NCBI GenBank assembly: GCA_048938025.1
Contig: JBHLMP010000006.1
Coordinates: 31,495-95,494 of the forward strand
DNA: 64,000 nt
Direction of reading: 5' to 3'
Source of the DNA: Promethearchaeota archaeon
GTDB lineage: Archaea > Asgardarchaeota > Lokiarchaeia > Sigyniarchaeales > SOKP01
Part shown: in pieces, positions 29,731-40,519 of the stretch
Layout: each line of letters starts with the position of its first letter
Position numbering within the stretch: position 1 is the first letter of the stretch
Made by a program: the position numbers and the translations under genes
Notes under the pieces: generated by a model
Databases searched by the model: none
What the model was told of the DNA's origin: nothing
Seen by the model: the letters and a program-made list of their open reading frames with translations, nothing else

Positions 29731-30879
29731 TTAAAACTCTTTATAATAAGAGATTAATGTATTTTTTATTTTTTCAAAATGTCCTAAATGCACCTTTAAG
29801 AGATCATCTAATGTTTCTCGGAGTCCTGCCTCTTGTACTTTCTTTAAGATTTTAAAATATGGTGATTCTTTGAGATTTTTTTCTAAAGGTTGATTTATTT
29901 CTGTACCTTTTAAGAGAAATTCGAGAGAGTCAACTTCTTTTACATTTATATTTTTTTGAATAATTTCTAACAACATTGTGTCAAAAGTAATCCTTAAAAT
30001 AACTTCGTGATCAAAATCACCTGTTTTAGGCAATAGAACCTCCTTAAGAAGTGATATTGACTTTTGAAAGAGAGTAATTGAATCTTGTCCTAATTCTTTT
30101 ATCTTTTGTCCAAAAGACCGATTCTTAGTAAGAGTGAGACATAAAGTAGCTAGTGTTTGATATTCGGCTACAAAATGAATAAAGCGTGCTTTTGTGTTGA
30201 GAATTGTGTCTTTTGATTCTTCTTCACCTAAAAGTTCACCTAAATTATCAATAGATTTTCTGAAATATGTTGCTATTTCTAAGAATTTATTTGCTGAAGC
30301 TTCATAATCTTTGGCAGATAATAGAAGAAGTGCATTTTTTTCTTCTTGTTCATATAATTCATCAAATTTGTTAATTCTCATAACAGCTTTTAAAATCAAT
30401 CGTTTTCCTAAATCTTTTTTAATACGAGAACGCTCATAAGCTTGTCCTGCTTTCAGAAGAAGAAGAGAAGAAGGGCTATGAAAGTCTTCTGGATCAGCTT
30501 TGATCAAATACTCAGAAGCTTTTTCCCAGCTTTCTCCAGCGGATTCCCAATCATTCATTTTATAAGAGAGATTTGCTAATCGCATGAGTAATTTAGCTGA
30601 GATTTCATATAGCTTTAATTCTTCAGTCTTTCTAATTATTGATTTTAATCGATAAAGTGCTTGAATATTATTCTTAAATTGAGATATAATCTGAACAATT
30701 CTAATAAATAATTCATCTAATTTGATATAACTCCCTAAATCAATATAAATTTCAGCAGCTTTCTCATAAAGATCGATAGCTTCATCTCCTTTACCTTTAT
30801 CAGCAAGATTCTCCGCTCTATCAATTAATTGAATTGCTTCTAATTCTCTATCATCGTTATATGTATTACTAAACACCAT
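29731..30879 (-). CDS. Alpha-helical repeat protein, TPR/alpha-SNAP-like
   Basis: Repeated A-x3-(Y/W/F)-x-(K/E)-A helices: AIDLYEKAAEIY, AGESWEKASEYL, AGQAYE, SANKFLEIATYF. Confidence 0.65.
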   Translation of the reverse strand: MVFSNTYNDDRELEAIQLIDRAENLADKGKGDEAIDLYEKAAEIYIDLGSYIKLDELFIRIVQIISQFKNNIQALYRLKSIIRKTEELKLYEISAKLLMRLANLSYKMNDWESAGESWEKASEYLIKADPEDFHSPSSLLLLKAGQAYERSRIKKDLGKRLILKAVMRINKFDELYEQEEKNALLLLSAKDYEASANKFLEIATYFRKSIDNLGELLGEEESKDTILNTKARFIHFVAEYQTLATLCLTLTKNRSFGQKIKELGQDSITLFQKSISLLKEVLLPKTGDFDHEVILRITFDTMLLEIIQKNINVKEVDSLEFLLKGTEINQPLEKNLKESPYFKILKKVQEAGLRETLDDLLKVHLGHFEKIKNTLISYYKEF

Positions 30880-31048: not shown

Positions 31049-31936
31049 TTATTGATGATAAAAGAGCTTAATATTTCGATTTTTAACTATTTTTTTAAAT
31101 TCGAAGCTTTGGTAAGCAGATGAGAATGATTCTTTAGCATCTTCTATAGCTCCATAAAAAATGAAATTAGAAAACCATGTTGCAATAGACATTATACTAG
31201 CTCTTCTATAACGTGTATGGAATTTAATATTTAGACGCGGTGATGAATATTGAAATAAGAATAGATTAGGTGCTGTGCCAACTGGAAGTTCTAGTGATGA
31301 ACTAATTAAGCGTTGAGTTTCTAATATATGGGCTAAACTCTCCAAATTAATAACACCTCCATCAATCCAAATCTTTTTAACTCCTAAGTCTTTTAAACCT
31401 TCCAAGAGATTTACATTATTAGGTTGGTTTTTTTCCGTAATGTAAGCATATCTTTGAGTAGACGTCATATTTTCAGAGCTTATTATTAAAACCACTACTG
31501 AAAGTATTTTATATTTCTGAATTATTTTTAATTCTTTATCGTTCTTTAAATTCGAAATGGTATTATAAATATATTGGTCGGGTTTAATACCTCTTTCATT
31601 AAGATATTCGACTCCACAAATTCTAGACTCAAAATTTCCACCTAATACAAAAGGAGGATTAAAATGTTTCAAATAAAAAGCTAGATAACTAATCATAGCC
31701 TTGGGTGTAGATGCGGATATTTCAACTAAATTAGGTATTTTGTATTGATTTGATAATGAAATTTGTGTATTTATTGACTTTAAAGCTTTTCTCTCATCGA
31801 AAATTTCACTATTCTTACGATTAACAAACGATTGACCTTGATAAAAAAGTGTCCCTATTAATACAGGGGGTAAATCAAAACTCCCTCGACCTACTTTTAT
31901 GTGTCCGTAGGAATAAAATTTTGATTCTTTCATCAT
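31049..31936 (-). CDS. mtrH: MtrH-family (methyl-pterin:corrinoid methyltransferase) protein, divergent
   Basis: PPVLIGTLFYQGQ...FDERKA, IYNTIS, IWIDGG, FIFYGAIEDA match the MtrH/MtgA barrel pattern. Confidence 0.75.
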   Translation of the reverse strand: MMKESKFYSYGHIKVGRGSFDLPPVLIGTLFYQGQSFVNRKNSEIFDERKALKSINTQISLSNQYKIPNLVEISASTPKAMISYLAFYLKHFNPPFVLGGNFESRICGVEYLNERGIKPDQYIYNTISNLKNDKELKIIQKYKILSVVVLIISSENMTSTQRYAYITEKNQPNNVNLLEGLKDLGVKKIWIDGGVINLESLAHILETQRLISSSLELPVGTAPNLFLFQYSSPRLNIKFHTRYRRASIMSIATWFSNFIFYGAIEDAKESFSSAYQSFEFKKIVKNRNIKLFYHQ

Positions 31937-32403: not shown

Positions 32404-33606
32404 TTATTGAAGGTCAAGTTTGACACCACATTTTTTACACTGAGAATCTAATAATTTAACAAAGCAATCTTCATGGTATAGTTGACCACATTCTGGGTTA
32501 CCACATTTAACTACTTTTTGACCTTTCTCAAAAATAAATTGGCATATAGGACAACTTAAATAGAGATCATCCTCTCTAAGCGCATCAATATTCATTAATT
32601 TTGCCGAAAATGTCTGTGGTTTCTGAAAACTAGTTTCTTTTTTACCTTTTGAAAGAACCCTTAATTTCTGTATTTGGGAAACTTCAGTTGGGATTTTTAA
32701 TAGATAAAAGCAGTGGGGACACCTTGCAGTTCCAGATTTTTTTAATATACTGCTTTGTTGAGAATCTGCCCATGCTGCTAAACAATGAATATGAAATGGA
32801 GTTTGACAATTAGGACAATATCTACCAGTAATATAAAATGATCCTTTAGTATATGGATTTTTATCAGAAAAGCAGATTGAGCATTTTTTAAAATCAGCTT
32901 CTCCTCTCAACTGTTTTATACGCTGTTCTTGATCTTTTGTTAAATCTTGAACTCTTAATAAATTTGCAGCTATTTTCCTAAGGAAAGCTGGATTTTCAAT
33001 ATCGATTTTCTTTACTCCATAATTTTTTACGTTAGCTTCAGCAAATTCATGAGCAGATTGTAATAAAGTTCCTCCATCATTATTAAAATAATATCTACCT
33101 CCTGTGAGATCACTTATTTTTTTTAAGATATTGACTTGGCTCGCGTCTCCAATTCTAAAAGTATCAATTTTTATATTTAATCCTTCTGCAAGACGAGCCA
33201 TTCTTAAAGGATCGATAGCTGTATTTTTTGAATAGTTTCCATCAGAAATAAGAAGTATTTTAGGATTTTTAGCAGCAATTTTTCTTAATTCAGCAATAAC
33301 AGTTTTAATTGATAAAGCTAGCCCTTCTCCCATATCAGAATTCCCTCCTAGTTTTATAGAATCCAATGCTGAAAAAAGGCTATTTATAAAAGTTGAAGTT
33401 GTAAAGTCTATAACCTTTTCTGCTATATCAGAAAATTTAATAATTGCAAACGCACTTGAAGTATCTAATTTAAATCTATCAGTTATTAATTTTTTAACAG
33501 CTTTAATACAACAAATTAATCGATTAGGAGTATAATCTGTTCTAAACATTGATCTTGATGTATCGATGCAAATAACGATATTTTCAGGGACTCTTTGCTC
33601 AGACAT
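32404..33606 (-). CDS. vWA domain (Rpn10/Ssl1-p44-like) plus two C4HC3 RING-type zinc fingers
   Basis: VICIDTSRSMFRTDYTPNRL (DxSxS), LLISDG, TGGRYY; CSIC..CPNC-x4-H-x2-C..W..CPHC and CPIC..CGNPEC-x4-H-x2-C..CKKC. Confidence 0.82.
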   Translation of the reverse strand: MSEQRVPENIVICIDTSRSMFRTDYTPNRLICCIKAVKKLITDRFKLDTSSAFAIIKFSDIAEKVIDFTTSTFINSLFSALDSIKLGGNSDMGEGLALSIKTVIAELRKIAAKNPKILLISDGNYSKNTAIDPLRMARLAEGLNIKIDTFRIGDASQVNILKKISDLTGGRYYFNNDGGTLLQSAHEFAEANVKNYGVKKIDIENPAFLRKIAANLLRVQDLTKDQEQRIKQLRGEADFKKCSICFSDKNPYTKGSFYITGRYCPNCQTPFHIHCLAAWADSQQSSILKKSGTARCPHCFYLLKIPTEVSQIQKLRVLSKGKKETSFQKPQTFSAKLMNIDALREDDLYLSCPICQFIFEKGQKVVKCGNPECGQLYHEDCFVKLLDSQCKKCGVKLDLQ

Positions 33607-33817: not shown

Positions 33818-35026
33818 ATGTCAGAGAATAGTGAAAAAGAGATTATTATTAAAGATTTTTTTAAAAGTAATGTAATTTTCTCAGAATTAGATGAAGTTTT
33901 AAGATTAAAGCCAGAAACTATGATTGGTATAGATAAAGTAAGTTCTGATAAATTAGTTGAACATAATATCAAAACTGTTGAAGATCTAGCCAATCTATCA
34001 GTTGATAATCTCCCTGAGATTGAAGATTTATTACCTAATATATTTAGTAAGTGGGTCAAAATAGCTCAAGTCATACAAAAAGCTGTAAAAGAACAGTTAA
34101 GACGTCATAAGAAGCTTTTAATGATCGGCTTAGATGCAGCGGGTAAAACATCAATCCTAGCAATAGTTCAAGATAAATTCTCGATTATAAAATCCTTGTT
34201 ACCAACTAGAGGTGTAAAAAGAGAGAAACTAGACTTTTTCGGTTACCCGATTATAAGCTGGGACCTCGGAGGCCAAATTCAATATCGTGAGAAGCTATAC
34301 TTCAATAGACCAGAATTATTTTTCACCGAGGCTGACCTTCTTTTATATGTTATTGACAGTCAAGATTTAGAAAGATTAACAGAATCAGCTAATTATTTTC
34401 GGGAAGTTCTAAATTCCTTAATAGATTTACATGAGCAACCAAAGATTTTAATAGTTCTTAGTAAAAGTGATCCAGACTTTCGTAAATCATTCCAATGGCA
34501 AAAAAATGTTGAAAGTATCAGAAATAAATTTGACAAAGTTGCCGATGAATATGAGCAATTCACTGTAGATTATTGTGATACATCAATATTTCAACCCACG
34601 ACCATCTGGCAAATGTTTAGTATTGCCTTGAAGAAAGTTTCTGAAACTTCTGAAATTATCGAAAATATTCTTGAAGATTTTACTAGTCAGGTTGAGGGGA
34701 AAGCATCAAGTTTAGTTTCGATGGACGGATTAATTTTTGGCAGTTATACCAAAACTAGTACTGATGAGATGTTAGTAAATAATACAGCACTTCTATTGCA
34801 AACACTTTCGAATTTTTATAATTCAATTGGTCTTATTAGAGAAAAAACAATAAGTCTTGATTTACCACTTAATGGGTTTACTATTCGGGGTGAAAAATTG
34901 TTTGAGTATTCAGAGCTTCAAATACCTGTATATTTATGGCTGCTTTCGGAAAACCCAGAATTATTACGAGGTAAAATTGATTATTTTAGAACACAATTAT
35001 TGCCTTTGATTAACTTGTTCATCTGA
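33818..35026 (+). CDS. Small GTPase (Arf/Rag-like) fused to an N-terminal helix-hairpin-helix and a C-terminal roadblock domain
   Basis: GIDKVSSDKLVEHNIKTVEDLA (HhH); GLDAAGKTS, PTRG, WDLGGQ, SKSD; ASSLVSMDGLIFGS roadblock-type hairpin. Confidence 0.85.
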   Translation: MSENSEKEIIIKDFFKSNVIFSELDEVLRLKPETMIGIDKVSSDKLVEHNIKTVEDLANLSVDNLPEIEDLLPNIFSKWVKIAQVIQKAVKEQLRRHKKLLMIGLDAAGKTSILAIVQDKFSIIKSLLPTRGVKREKLDFFGYPIISWDLGGQIQYREKLYFNRPELFFTEADLLLYVIDSQDLERLTESANYFREVLNSLIDLHEQPKILIVLSKSDPDFRKSFQWQKNVESIRNKFDKVADEYEQFTVDYCDTSIFQPTTIWQMFSIALKKVSETSEIIENILEDFTSQVEGKASSLVSMDGLIFGSYTKTSTDEMLVNNTALLLQTLSNFYNSIGLIREKTISLDLPLNGFTIRGEKLFEYSELQIPVYLWLLSENPELLRGKIDYFRTQLLPLINLFI

Positions 35027-38139: not shown

Positions 38140-38679
38140 ATGAGCAGAGCCAAAAGTCCTTTTTATAAAATATGTATAGTAGGAGACACTGGAGTTGGAA
38201 AAACTACATTAATGCATCAATATTTAGATTATAGATTTTTAGCAAATATCAGATCCACTATTGGTTCAGATTTTTTTATAAAACATCTTCAATTACCCGA
38301 AGATCATCAATCATTTACACTTCAAATTTGGGACTTAGCTGGGCAACAACATTATAAATGGGTAAGAAATGCTTTTTATAAAGGAGCGAAAGGAATTGTT
38401 TATGTATTTGATCTAACTCGAAGAGACACATTTGAAAATATTCCAAATTGGAAAAGTGAGGTTGAAGATGTTATTGGAGTTGTACCAAATATGTTTGTAG
38501 GTAATAAATTGGACCTTATTGAATCTATAGGGAGATTAGTAACAGATGAAGAAACACAGAAAATAAAAGGTGAATTAAATTCTATTAGATACGTAGAAAC
38601 AAGTGCAAAAAAGGGTTTTGGGGTAAAAGATATTTTTCTTAATTTAACAAGAGAAATTTACAGTTCATGTCGAAAATAG
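38140..38679 (+). CDS. Rab-like small GTPase
   Basis: GDTGVGKT, STIGSDF, LQIWDLAGQ, FYKGA, VFDLT, GNKLD, ETSAK; no long hypervariable tail. Confidence 0.92.
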   Translation: MSRAKSPFYKICIVGDTGVGKTTLMHQYLDYRFLANIRSTIGSDFFIKHLQLPEDHQSFTLQIWDLAGQQHYKWVRNAFYKGAKGIVYVFDLTRRDTFENIPNWKSEVEDVIGVVPNMFVGNKLDLIESIGRLVTDEETQKIKGELNSIRYVETSAKKGFGVKDIFLNLTREIYSSCRK

Positions 38680-38741
38680 AGTGTAAAAATTCTCAACAAT
38701 TGTCTAAACCATTCAATAGGTTTAAATTTATGAACATGACT

Positions 38742-39338
38742 TTAAAGGGTAGAGAGAAAATCAGAAACTGCTTCTTCTGACGGTTCTGGATCGACAACAG
38801 AACTATCTAGTTCTTCACCTATTATATCAAATGTATATGTGCATTTATCAGCACCTAATAGAACACATTCAGATTCCCTTCCATCAACATCAATTTTTAA
38901 GATTTCAAATACCCCTTGGAAGATGCCTAAGTAAAGTAAGCACAGGTTTTTAGCCATAATGTTATCTTCTTCTTGAGATGCTAGAGGATCATTTACACCT
39001 ATTTGGATTTTATTTTTTCCAAAGTGTGCTCTTAATTGTCCATAGCCCATTAATTCCATAGATTCAAGAATACCTAGAAAAACATCTTTTTTAGTAGCAA
39101 TATTTTCAAGAGCCCAATCTTTATTGTAAAAGAATTTTTCCATAAAAGATCTTCCCAGGGTTTTTCCTACCCAAGTTAATATATCATCAGCATTTGTACC
39201 AGCAAATTCAGTGAATTCGATTAAGTCAATAGGTCTTAACATTAATAAGCGCATATCTTTCTTTTTTTCGCCGAAAAATAGTTGTCCTAATTTCTCGTCA
39301 ATCATTAGTTGTAATTCTTTTTTCAATCTTTTTGACAT
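38742..39338 (-). CDS. V4R-domain protein (fold shared with TRAPP Bet3-like subunits)
   Basis: LTWVGKTLGRSF, MGYG, CLLYLGIFQGVF, ESECVLLGADKCTYTF; acidic tail. Confidence 0.82.
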   Translation of the reverse strand: MSKRLKKELQLMIDEKLGQLFFGEKKKDMRLLMLRPIDLIEFTEFAGTNADDILTWVGKTLGRSFMEKFFYNKDWALENIATKKDVFLGILESMELMGYGQLRAHFGKNKIQIGVNDPLASQEEDNIMAKNLCLLYLGIFQGVFEILKIDVDGRESECVLLGADKCTYTFDIIGEELDSSVVDPEPSEEAVSDFLSTL

Positions 39339-39463
39339 AGCTTTTCCCTATTTAAGTATTTCATTAAGATTATTAGGAATTTATATAATAGAAATTTAAG
39401 TGTCTAGATATTTAAATTTAATGTTAAAGTTAGTTGAAATCTAAAATTCAAATATTAGGATTA

Positions 39464-40519
39464 TTAAGAAGCGACCAAATTAAAAATTGTTTGGATTACA
39501 GCATCAAGATTATGTTTAGTCTTTACTGAAGTGAAAAGAAATGCCCAATCTCTATGTTTAATATCTTCAAAATTAAAAAAATCATATAATTCTTCTTTTA
39601 ATTTCTCTAGTTGATTTTCCCTGCTTTTTTCTGAAGATTTAATTAAATCTATTTTATTACCCACGATCAATAAAGGAATACCGAACAAATCATCTCTATT
39701 CACAATATTCCAGAATTCTTTTTTTGATTCTTCAAATCGTATTTGGTTAGCTATATCGATCATAAATACAACAATATTTGAGTCTTGTAAGCCAATCAAC
39801 CATTTTTTTCGAAAATTTTGTTGACCTGGCATATCCCAAAAAGCCAGTAACCCTTTTTCTTGTTTTTCAATATATTCAATATTGAATTTTCGAGTCGGAG
39901 CAAAGAAATTATCATTGAATTCACCTGTTTTTATTCTTCTTACAAGGGATGTCTTGCCAACTTCATCAATTCCAAATAAAAAGACTTTAATAAATAATTC
40001 TTGCTGGTAATGATAGACAATTTTAGGAGGTTTTTCAATAATTTCATCCCCATATCTTCTAATATCAATGAACATCGAAATTAGCAAATTTTCTATTTCA
40101 ATTTCATCATCAAAAGAATATACTGTTCCATTAATTAATAATTCACTCAATAATTCTTCAAAAATTTCTTTATAATCATAAGGATTATCTTCTTCATCAA
40201 AAATTAGACCAATAAGTATTTTTCCATTTATACAAGATGTGTATATATTTAAATCATTAACAATTTGTGCAACAGGCTTATCAATTTTATAATGATTTGA
40301 TTTTTCAGTTAAATCAGGGTTATAAATTGATAAATTATTATGGATATTATTCTTGTTATTTAGATTTGCCTGATCATGACCAGTAATAATCATATTAACA
40401 AGATTTTTGTCATTGATATTTATAATTTCATTTGGATAGCTATAGATATTAAGATCTTTTAAGTCTTGAAATTTTTTCCCTTTAAATAGAAAAATGTTAT
40501 GTAACAATGAAATTTCCAA
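39464..40519 (-). CDS. Small GTPase (Arf/Rag-like) with N-terminal longin/uDENN-like extension
   Basis: GIDEVGKTS, APT, WDMPGQ, GNKID, FTSVK; N-terminal about 170 aa with ILIGLIFDEEDNPYDY strand-helix pattern (longin call is inference). Confidence 0.8.
   Translation of the reverse strand: MEISLLHNIFLFKGKKFQDLKDLNIYSYPNEIININDKNLVNMIITGHDQANLNNKNNIHNNLSIYNPDLTEKSNHYKIDKPVAQIVNDLNIYTSCINGKILIGLIFDEEDNPYDYKEIFEELLSELLINGTVYSFDDEIEIENLLISMFIDIRRYGDEIIEKPPKIVYHYQQELFIKVFLFGIDEVGKTSLVRRIKTGEFNDNFFAPTRKFNIEYIEKQEKGLLAFWDMPGQQNFRKKWLIGLQDSNIVVFMIDIANQIRFEESKKEFWNIVNRDDLFGIPLLIVGNKIDLIKSSEKSRENQLEKLKEELYDFFNFEDIKHRDWAFLFTSVKTKHNLDAVIQTIFNLVAS

Follow-up and report, generated by a model that had tools for sequence, protein, structure and literature searches.

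In a 64,000-nucleotide stretch of DNA from a Promethearchaeota archaeon (GenBank assembly GCA_048938025.1, contig JBHLMP010000006.1, positions 31,495 to 95,494; hereafter the window), an open reading frame (ORF) on the reverse strand encodes a protein in which a von Willebrand factor A (vWA) domain is followed by two RING-type zinc fingers. This protein, paralog A, belongs to a conserved, apparently undescribed family of multi-domain RING proteins of Loki-type Asgard archaea (the Loki family). We predict that it is a ubiquitin E3-ligase adaptor and give this reading a probability of about 0.5; it is likely to work most like a FANCL-type RING ligase while being laid out like p44 (Ssl1 in yeast), a subunit of TFIIH. 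The ORF and its parts are as follows.

32404..33606, reverse strand: ORF of the vWA-RING-RING protein, paralog A (P0001), 400 amino acids (aa)
33031..33594, reverse strand: vWA domain, about aa 5-192, matched by Pfam VWA, VWA_2, and Ssl1, with a complete metal-ion-dependent adhesion site (MIDAS) set of D15, S17, S19, S90, and D122
32956..32976, reverse strand: linker motif K211-I212-A213-x2-L216 preceding finger 1, conserved in the alignment
32710..32883, reverse strand: finger 1, a C4HC3 RING variant (C242-C299) with the E2-face residues I244, F246, W279, and P297
32428..32616, reverse strand: finger 2, a short C4HC3 RING (C352-C393) with an N-terminal strand from about aa 331, assigned from fold matches

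Architecture and distribution of the family

Pfam detects VWA (55.3 bits), VWA_2 (52.7 bits), Ssl1 (37.5 bits at a cut-off of 27), and zf-RING_2 (32.7 bits, two stretches) on paralog A. Homologs number 358 at E ≤ 1e-3, and the 120 listed ones are 62-95% identical across 95-100% of the length. All 16 zinc ligands of both fingers are invariant in the 22 rows of a homolog alignment (23-69% identity to the query) and, since the mean column identity is 43%, this ligand pattern is not due to chance. In the same rows, I212 and A213 of the linker motif are invariant and L216 is nearly so, and the AlphaFold2 model of paralog A (mean predicted local distance difference test score, pLDDT, 83.6) places a helix followed by short strands in this region. 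The C-terminal half folded separately (pLDDT 81.2) matches RING folds. An initial annotation of this DNA had described a vWA domain followed by two cross-brace fingers, and the ORF, the Pfam matches, and the invariant ligands bear this out, the vWA start quoted there corresponding to residues 12-30.

Finger 1 reads C242-x2-C245-x18-C264-x2-C267-x4-H272-x2-C275-x20-C296-x2-C299 and finger 2 reads C352-x2-C355-x12-C368-x4-C373-x4-H378-x2-C381-x8-C390-x2-C393. The C-x2-C-x4-H-x2-C core that the same annotation had given to both fingers is therefore found in finger 1, together with the L-x2-W helix proposed for it (L276-x2-W279), but not in finger 2, where ligands 3 and 4 are spaced by x4; in this finger x4 occurs in 49 of 65 paralog-A rows and x2 in 14, with 2 rows unmatched. 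The metal site of the vWA domain is similarly well kept, with D15, S17, and S19 present in 64/65 paralog-A rows, Ser or Thr at position 90 in 64/65, and D122 in 65/65; S90, as judged by its position, is presumably the fourth MIDAS residue.

A second full-length member, paralog B, is encoded in the source genome at C75:7606-8787, is 30% identical to paralog A, and matches Pfam Ssl1 with 47.6 bits. It keeps the D, S/T, S, and D of the metal site and is devoid of Ser/Thr at the fourth place.

Of the 77 other genomes of the class, 76 have a full-length match to the family profile. At E ≤ 1e-99 they comprise all 68 genomes of the family to which the source genome belongs (f1), all seven from another family of the same order (f2), and the one genome of f4; the single f3 genome gives a best match of only E 6.7e-6. 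No full-length match was found in 223 genomes of other Asgard classes (best E 6.4e-13), and in 26 genomes with weak matches that were searched again each match covered either the vWA part or the finger part and never both. Among 201 Asgard genomes scanned with Pfam Ssl1, matches are confined to the source genome, 39/40 f1 genomes, and 3/3 f2 genomes (two each in 32 of these 43), whereas the 157 other Asgard genomes and 14 control prokaryotes gave none. As the genomes are incomplete and a sample, the family should be called not found, rather than absent, outside the class. Most named homologs are from Promethearchaeota/Lokiarchaeota; as a counterweight to a range limited to Loki-type genomes, 8 of the 120 listed homologs, 65-67% identical, are nominally from Hod-, Thor-, Odin-, or Hermodarchaeota.

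We found no published description of a vWA-RING-RING family in the openly available literature, although it may appear in orthologue tables of supplements beyond this search, such as those of a 2020 preprint. There is no mention of vWA, von Willebrand, TFIIH, or Rpn10 in PMC13734099, of vWA, von Willebrand, TFIIH, Ssl1, or RING in bioRxiv 10.1101/2020.10.19.343400, or of Ssl1, TFIIH, vWA, or Willebrand in the main text of PMC12962969, and three supplement files of the latter hold no Ssl1, TFIIH, GTF2H2, Rpn10, PSMD4, or TF2H2.

The fingers and a predicted role in ubiquitylation

The best structural match of finger 1 is FANCL in an E2-E3 complex (4ccg_Y; Z 6.6, root-mean-square deviation [rmsd] 1.9, 64/67 aligned), listerin matches with Z 5.3, and the top profile matches are FANCL (E 0.0013) and Nse1 (E 0.0033). 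Of the residues facing the E2, I244 and F246 are present in 65/65 and P297 in 59/65 paralog-A rows, position 279 is Trp in 61 rows and Tyr in four, and L276 is Leu in 53/65; in paralog B, the Ile, Trp, and Pro of this face are found in 31/31 rows. At the positions of I244, F246, W279, and P297 the alignment places Ile, Tyr, Trp, and Pro of FANCL. Finger 1 thus shares ligand order, fold, and E2-face residues with the RINGs of FANCL, listerin/Ltn1, and Nse1, but it is joined to a vWA domain instead of RWD repeats or winged helices, and a second RING follows. In the archaeal E3 srfp, described as a small stand-alone RING protein, mutation of an Ile abolished and mutation of a Trp impaired ubiquitylation (PMC5654768); by analogy, these residues would correspond to the E2-face Ile and Trp of finger 1.

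The partners required by such a ligase are encoded in the source genome, where contig C8 carries two ubiquitin-like genes, E1, E2, and JAB (JAMM) genes in one run, with ubiquitin at C8:18583, E1 at C8:18995, and E2 at C8:20335, and C20 carries another E2 gene beside a second E1 (E1 label from sequence reading). The open frame of this second E2 (C20:19990-20505) has 171 codons, with the first standard start codon occurring late. A RING-H2 protein resembling srfp is encoded at C87:4548-5132. The protein encoded at C47:186-1565 combines RWD/E2-like repeats with a following RING of the finger-1 type in a FANCL-like layout, the RWD score being at the cut-off only; if this layout is read correctly, it shows that the lineage fuses a RING of this type in FANCL-like fashion. 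Because cognate ubiquitin, E1, and E2 are available from the same genome, the ligase reading is directly testable.

In the predicted mechanism, finger 1 would recruit the ubiquitin-loaded E2 of the cell, the vWA domain would hold the target by gripping an acidic residue through Mg2+, and finger 2 would mediate protein contacts in the manner of the p44 RING. A Rag-like GTPase, transcribed from the gap that it shares with paralog A and probably co-regulated with this head-to-head neighbor, would be the first candidate for a target or regulator, and paralog B would serve likewise for a different set of targets. A multi-domain RING protein that is duplicated, nearly universal, and equipped with its own docking domain would mean that substrate-selecting ligases had already arisen in one Asgard lineage, with the Rag-like GTPase as a possible target.

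The proposal of a ubiquitin E3 ligase in the initial annotation is consistent with finger 1, given its FANCL-like fold, its E2-face residues, and the ubiquitin operon, but does not extend to finger 2, in which the places of the E2-face Trp and Pro are taken by Leu/Val and Lys/Arg in 65/65 paralog-A rows. Including its leading strand, finger 2 matches the folds of RNF165/Ark2C (Z 6.9), RNF12 (Z 6.7), and RNF38 (Z 6.2).

Several points weigh against a ligase. The gene for paralog A lies outside the ubiquitin operon, and divergent neighbors such as the GTPase need not interact. Structural Z scores of the fingers are all below 8, a range in which the tool warns of a mere common arrangement, and Foldseek with the finger half of the protein gives no match at E ≤ 0.001. 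Fingers like these also occur in Nse1 and Slx1, where they serve as scaffolds or in functions other than ligation. In addition, the residue following the last Cys of finger 1 is Phe, Leu, or Tyr and never Arg or Lys in the paralog-A rows, and finger 2 mostly has Gly or Asp and no basic residue there, while a basic residue at this place is described as conserved in RING E3s (PMC5654768). FANCL, too, is devoid of it, having Ser in 4ccg, so this basic 'linchpin' residue is not universal. With regard to the age of the architecture, C4HC3 fingers of the same kind as fingers 1 and 2 recur in other proteins of the source genome, so that the fusion of fingers to the vWA domain need not be old.

Comparison with p44, Rpn10, and prokaryotic vWA proteins

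The best fold match of the vWA domain is that of Ssl1 (4wfq; Z 24.3, rmsd 2.0, 183 aligned), although the p44 chain 8ebs_E and bacterial Mfa5 tie with it within 1 Z. The initial annotation had taken the shared vWA start, D-x-S-x-x-M...P-x-R, as a link to Rpn10 and p44. This start is not diagnostic: its D, S, M, D, and R are invariant in 22/22 rows of BatA, a MoxR-associated vWA protein, with P nearly so, and a motif common to BatA proves nothing about kinship to Rpn10 or p44; as a marker of such kinship it was rejected.

The profile comparisons included a family of stand-alone vWA proteins, which by score are the nearest non-Loki relatives. On the PDB chains of human Rpn10 (5vfp), fission-yeast Rpn10 (2x5n), human p44 (5o85), and a BatA-like protein (4rck), the Loki family profile scores 69, 76, 62, and 53 bits, the stand-alone family profile 77, 63, 42, and 109 bits, the BatA profile 39, 29, 30, and 219 bits, and the p44 profile 39, 27, self, and 20 bits, respectively. 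HHalign joins the Loki family to the stand-alone family with 284.9, to BatA with 245.6, and to p44 with 128.0; the stand-alone family and BatA reach 98.8 and 94.7 with p44. The p44 profile, built from 20 of the 22 p44 rows after removal of a duplicate and of a row with a broken frame, gives medians of 32.8 bits for 22 Loki rows, 21.1 for 111 BatA-type proteins (maximum 39.7), and 19.4 for 14 stand-alone proteins in a pool rich in Loki sequences, while another 24 divergent Loki-type proteins reach only 15.6 bits. From these profile and HHalign scores, the Loki vWA is apparently closest to prokaryotic vWAs and yet, among three prokaryotic families, nearest to p44.

Four extra residues after helix 1 are common to the Loki family, p44, Rpn10, and the stand-alone family, while BatA has none of them and instead carries a long insertion that the Loki family, p44, and Rpn10 do not have. 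In the ESM Atlas, p44 clusters are the first non-Loki rows for the whole protein (0.90, with 152-154 shared features, family members typically having 170), whereas for the vWA domain alone bacterial and archaeal vWA clusters come first. The best NCBIfam matches of the Loki protein are BatA-type models, far below their cut-off, and some BatA-type proteins also pass the Pfam Ssl1 cut-off, at 28-32 bits.

The stand-alone family is rare and scattered, comprising P0222, P0225, P0227, P0235, P0246, P0254, P0255, P0263, P0274-P0279, and L249:4265-5699. Most members have no finger, while P0222 carries a Prok-RING_1 finger. The one taxon-labelled member (Patescibacteria) follows a J-domain gene. As the family is apparently undescribed, there is no function to borrow from it. 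A genome scan with P0235 gave 114 pattern matches, none of which was confirmed, and one with alignment A7 gave one close member only, the rest being 79 generic vWA loci.

p44 has the domain order vWA, zinc module, RING (PMC6422496; PMC5737387), and the Loki family has the same order with a terminal RING. Unlike p44, the Loki protein has a complete metal site, which is incomplete in p44 and Rpn10 in our alignments, has no N-terminal extension, and carries, in place of the eZnF of p44, a complete RING including its helix. The fifth ligand of the last finger is His in the Loki family (H378, invariant) and Cys in p44; before the last Cys pair, paralog A has eight residues (once nine) and p44 has 10 in 19/22 rows, a spacing shared by paralog B in 31/31 rows. 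Having no eZnF and no C4C4 finger, the Loki protein is not p44. Finger 2 matches Ark2C and RNF38, which are named as the best matches of the p44 RING (PMC5737387), slightly better than the p44 RING itself (8ebs_E; Z 5.8, rmsd 2.6, 59 aligned). HHalign gives 5% over 12 columns for finger 1 against the p44 eZnF and 40% for finger 2 against the p44 RING, while other RINGs of the source genome reach 59-61% with the p44 RING and 96-98% with finger 2. The idea that the fingers are specifically p44-like was rejected on these profiles, 5-40% being no better than other RINGs of the genome. With the whole model, the top 18 Foldseek rows are p44/Ssl1 chains; at rmsd values of 17-22 Å, however, these matches reflect domain order and not a shared three-dimensional arrangement.

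Trees of the vWA domain, none of which included Rpn10 or p34 sequences, differ in their placement of p44, whose stem is about 3 changes per site. The p44 rows stem from a metagenome motif scan (80 of at least 117 loci listed; 22 frames aligned) and were confirmed as p44 by profile. A quick tree of 77 rows places p44 beside the long BatA branch and a careful tree of the same size places it with the Loki clade (support 34/94), whereas in a careful tree of 58 rows, re-aligned after dropping 25 long or redundant rows and adding 6, the Loki clade joins the stand-alone family (89/87) and p44 stays outside. Approximately unbiased (AU) tests reject neither Loki+p44 (p=0.41) nor Loki+stand-alone without p44 (p=0.19). 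The vWA phylogeny called for by the initial annotation has therefore joined the Loki family to p44 in one careful tree and kept them apart in two others, and the grouping with BatA, named there as a refuting outcome, is rejected only marginally (AU p=0.033; 17 Loki-type and 11 BatA rows). Of the proposed link to p44, the best scores among three prokaryotic families and the domain order speak for it, but the trees disagree and HHalign shows no specific likeness of the fingers to those of p44; descent of p44 from the Loki family is unproven. The link is also weakened by the restriction of the family to Loki-type genomes in the sample. Heimdallarchaeia are held to be the closest relatives of eukaryotes.

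It is conceivable, albeit doubtful, that TFIIH p44 and p34 arose from a gene whose archaeal sister survives as the Loki family. The common ancestor would then have been a vWA-RING-RING ubiquitin ligase; eukaryotes would have lost the metal site, cut the helix from the first RING to give the interlocking eZnF, kept the second RING, which would remain a ligase in yeast Ssl1, and recruited the protein to the helicases XPB and XPD. Rpn10 would have branched off from this vWA class without fingers. E3 activity has been reported for yeast Ssl1 (PMC5737387, citing Takagi 2005), which also speaks for a ligase role of the Loki protein. In the p44 rows, the CxCH motif and a Cys at RING position 5 are both present in 9/20 and both absent in 11/20, these rows being kin with few independent events; the p44 eZnF would accordingly seem to behave like an interleaved two-zinc finger, in support of a sister relationship to p44 and p34. 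If the link to p44 is true, a non-helicase core subunit of TFIIH has a prokaryotic origin in the ubiquitin system, which explains the presence of a RING in Ssl1.

Alternatively, the Loki protein might itself be a non-catalytic scaffold of the p44 kind, with a vWA domain that binds and stimulates a helicase such as XPD and fingers that contact a second vWA protein, paralog B being the counterpart of p34. Besides the domain order and the whole-model matches, the confinement of Pfam Ssl1 matches to the Loki family, mostly two per genome, fits such a scaffold, an XPD-type helicase is present in the source genome, and the p44 RING binds p34 through its E2-like face. However, the XPD search also matches 5/14 control prokaryotes, there is no helicase among 11 window neighbors scanned by Pfam, the genome yields neither a p34 match over the cut-off nor a p52 match (the p52 search was weak and matched nowhere), and the metal site is intact in the Loki family and not in p44. 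A complex prediction for paralogs A and B scored 0.01 against a mark of 0.32, which is no evidence either way. With the large rmsd of the whole-model matches added, a p44-like scaffold appears unlikely.

Rpn10/S5a (PSMD4) also has its vWA domain at the N-terminus, aligning with the Loki protein from residue 2 almost without gaps, and Rpn10 chains are the best PDB sequence matches of the Loki profile (75.6 bits, E 3.6e-20, and 69.2 bits), compared with 39 bits for the p44 profile on Rpn10. The similarity to Rpn10 stated in the initial annotation is thus real, yet human Rpn10 receives a higher score from the stand-alone family than from the Loki family (77 vs 69 bits), and the idea that Rpn10-likeness is specific to Asgard archaea was rejected since this scattered non-Loki family matches it. 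A proteasome adaptor whose vWA domain docks on the proteasome or its ATPase, with fingers that deliver or tag substrates, would agree with a proteasome alpha-subunit gene lying 1.2-3.7 kb from paralog A in 4/4 f2 loci with more than 5 kb of downstream DNA and with a weak RPN7 match in a neighboring TPR gene. That alpha-subunit gene, however, is on the opposite strand and none was seen in any f1 locus, the RPN7 match is below its cut-off, and among the 150 best representatives, which reach down to 92 bits and of which 47 were scanned by Pfam, none was recognized as Rpn10-like, while BatA proteins are present. With regard to a 19S lid, a PCI search gave six partial matches and also matched in 4/14 controls. 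There is no ubiquitin-interacting motif (UIM) among the 16 Pfam families matched at E ≤ 0.1, the C-terminus consisting of two zinc fingers in its stead, and without a UIM the Loki protein is not Rpn10. An Rpn10-like role is, on balance, quite improbable.

A further point against the ligase is that C4HC3 is also the ligand order of PHD fingers. The two fingers might instead read a ligand (peptide, lipid, or nucleic acid) with no relation to E2. Weak Pfam PHD matches occur in 15/24 finger-1 rows (best E 1e-4), compared with zf-RING_2 matches in 14/24, and finger 2 matches PHD_NSD with 26.8 bits, above its cut-off. In the structural ranking, by contrast, the top eight matches are RING E3s and the first PHD-containing chain appears at rank 12, and in the models finger 1 carries a long Trp-bearing helix after the sixth ligand, so that we give little credence to PHD-like readers.

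Least probable of all is an adaptor of the BatA/MoxR type that binds clients through a bridging metal and passes them to an AAA+ ATPase, the fingers being accessory, for although BatA/BatB share start motif and intact metal site with the Loki family, HHalign favors BatA far above p44, the NCBIfam matches are BatA-type, and MoxR-type ATPases occur in the genome, BatA has no fingers and stands two indels apart, its membrane N-terminus (PF07584) gives no match on the Loki protein, whose vWA domain starts at residue 9, all five AAA_3 matches lie on contigs other than that of paralog A, the best MoxR match (C48:100307) has a vWA neighbor of its own (C48:98482-99708), and a Loki+BatA clade is marginally rejected. 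With neither the membrane N-terminus nor a MoxR gene nearby, the Loki protein is not BatA.

Genomic context and other members of the family

The ligase adaptor that we favor is encoded among the following neighbors.

33818..35026, forward strand: Rag/Arf-like GTPase, 402 aa (Pfam Gtr1_RagA 78.6 bits, Arf 69.3 bits; PDB 8yl2, E 4.7e-33)
31049-31936, co-oriented with paralog A: MtrH-like gene, found downstream of paralog A in the majority of f1 genomes
29731..30879, reverse strand: TPR/SNAP-like solenoid gene (Pfam TPR_12 31.3 bits; RPN7 and SNAP weak, below cut-off)

Paralog A and the GTPase gene are divergent, separated by an intergenic gap of 211 bp. Leaving out one locus with a flank of 189 bp, 41 f1 genomes have DNA upstream of paralog A; in 40 of these the head-to-head GTPase is no more than 830 bp away, and in the remaining one it lies at 2.7 kb. 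The 830-bp limit also holds for four of seven f2 loci, and a fifth has a homolog 2.2 kb downstream. In two genera (L236:8352-9650 and L237:2-772), a further paralog is encoded on the far side of the GTPase, which is thus flanked by two members. The TPR/SNAP-like gene occurs near paralog A in f1 and f2, being 26% identical to the gene at the f2 loci, and was not detected in three f1 loci with more than 5 kb of flank; the MtrH-like gene was not seen in the f2 loci. Paralog B is mostly situated between an M20-peptidase-like gene and the methionyl-tRNA synthetase gene (labels from sequence reading). A sigma-70 promoter scan, whose model is unsuited to archaea, gave 13 sites where 10.2 were expected. 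Genes for a Rab-like GTPase, a V4R protein, and an Arf-like GTPase with an N-terminal extension lie 4-7 kb from paralog A (window 38140-40519).

Three further members of the source genome combine a degenerate vWA domain, devoid of the metal-site motif, with finger 1 and a C-terminal Cys-pair ribbon; most of their relatives have no vWA domain by Pfam.

C76:76329-77483: degenerate member
C33:116972-118261: degenerate member
C33:118412-119722: degenerate member, in tandem with the preceding one

A protein of 693 aa encoded at L037:3551-5629 (G294) has vWA domain and finger 1 followed by an unrelated middle part, finger 2 being replaced by a double zinc ribbon. The unlabelled metagenome proteins P0177 and P0185 consist of a vWA domain and one short finger without the fifth ligand and branch either basally to the Loki clade or next to the stand-alone proteins. 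Viral contigs scanned for the Rpn10 motif and the p44 motif gave 0 matches each.

Other finger proteins are encoded in the source genome. Directly after the run of ubiquitin, E1, E2, and JAB genes, C8:21709-22878 encodes a membrane protein with a C-terminal RING-like finger, a candidate membrane E3. The loci C13:8782-17656, C22:2498, C35:1-1374, C52:60310, C76:23547, and C5:40174 encode an expanded family of proteins with a terminal C4C4 finger of p44-like spacing, and three of these loci adjoin weak E2-like genes (C13:14412, C22:622, and C76:25489); this set of fingers reaches only 59% with the p44 RING in HHalign. The actin-like protein encoded at C41:21502-23031 (named from its sequence) bears an insert near its C-terminus, for which a RING was considered and rejected, the insert consisting of two Cys-pair zinc ribbons.

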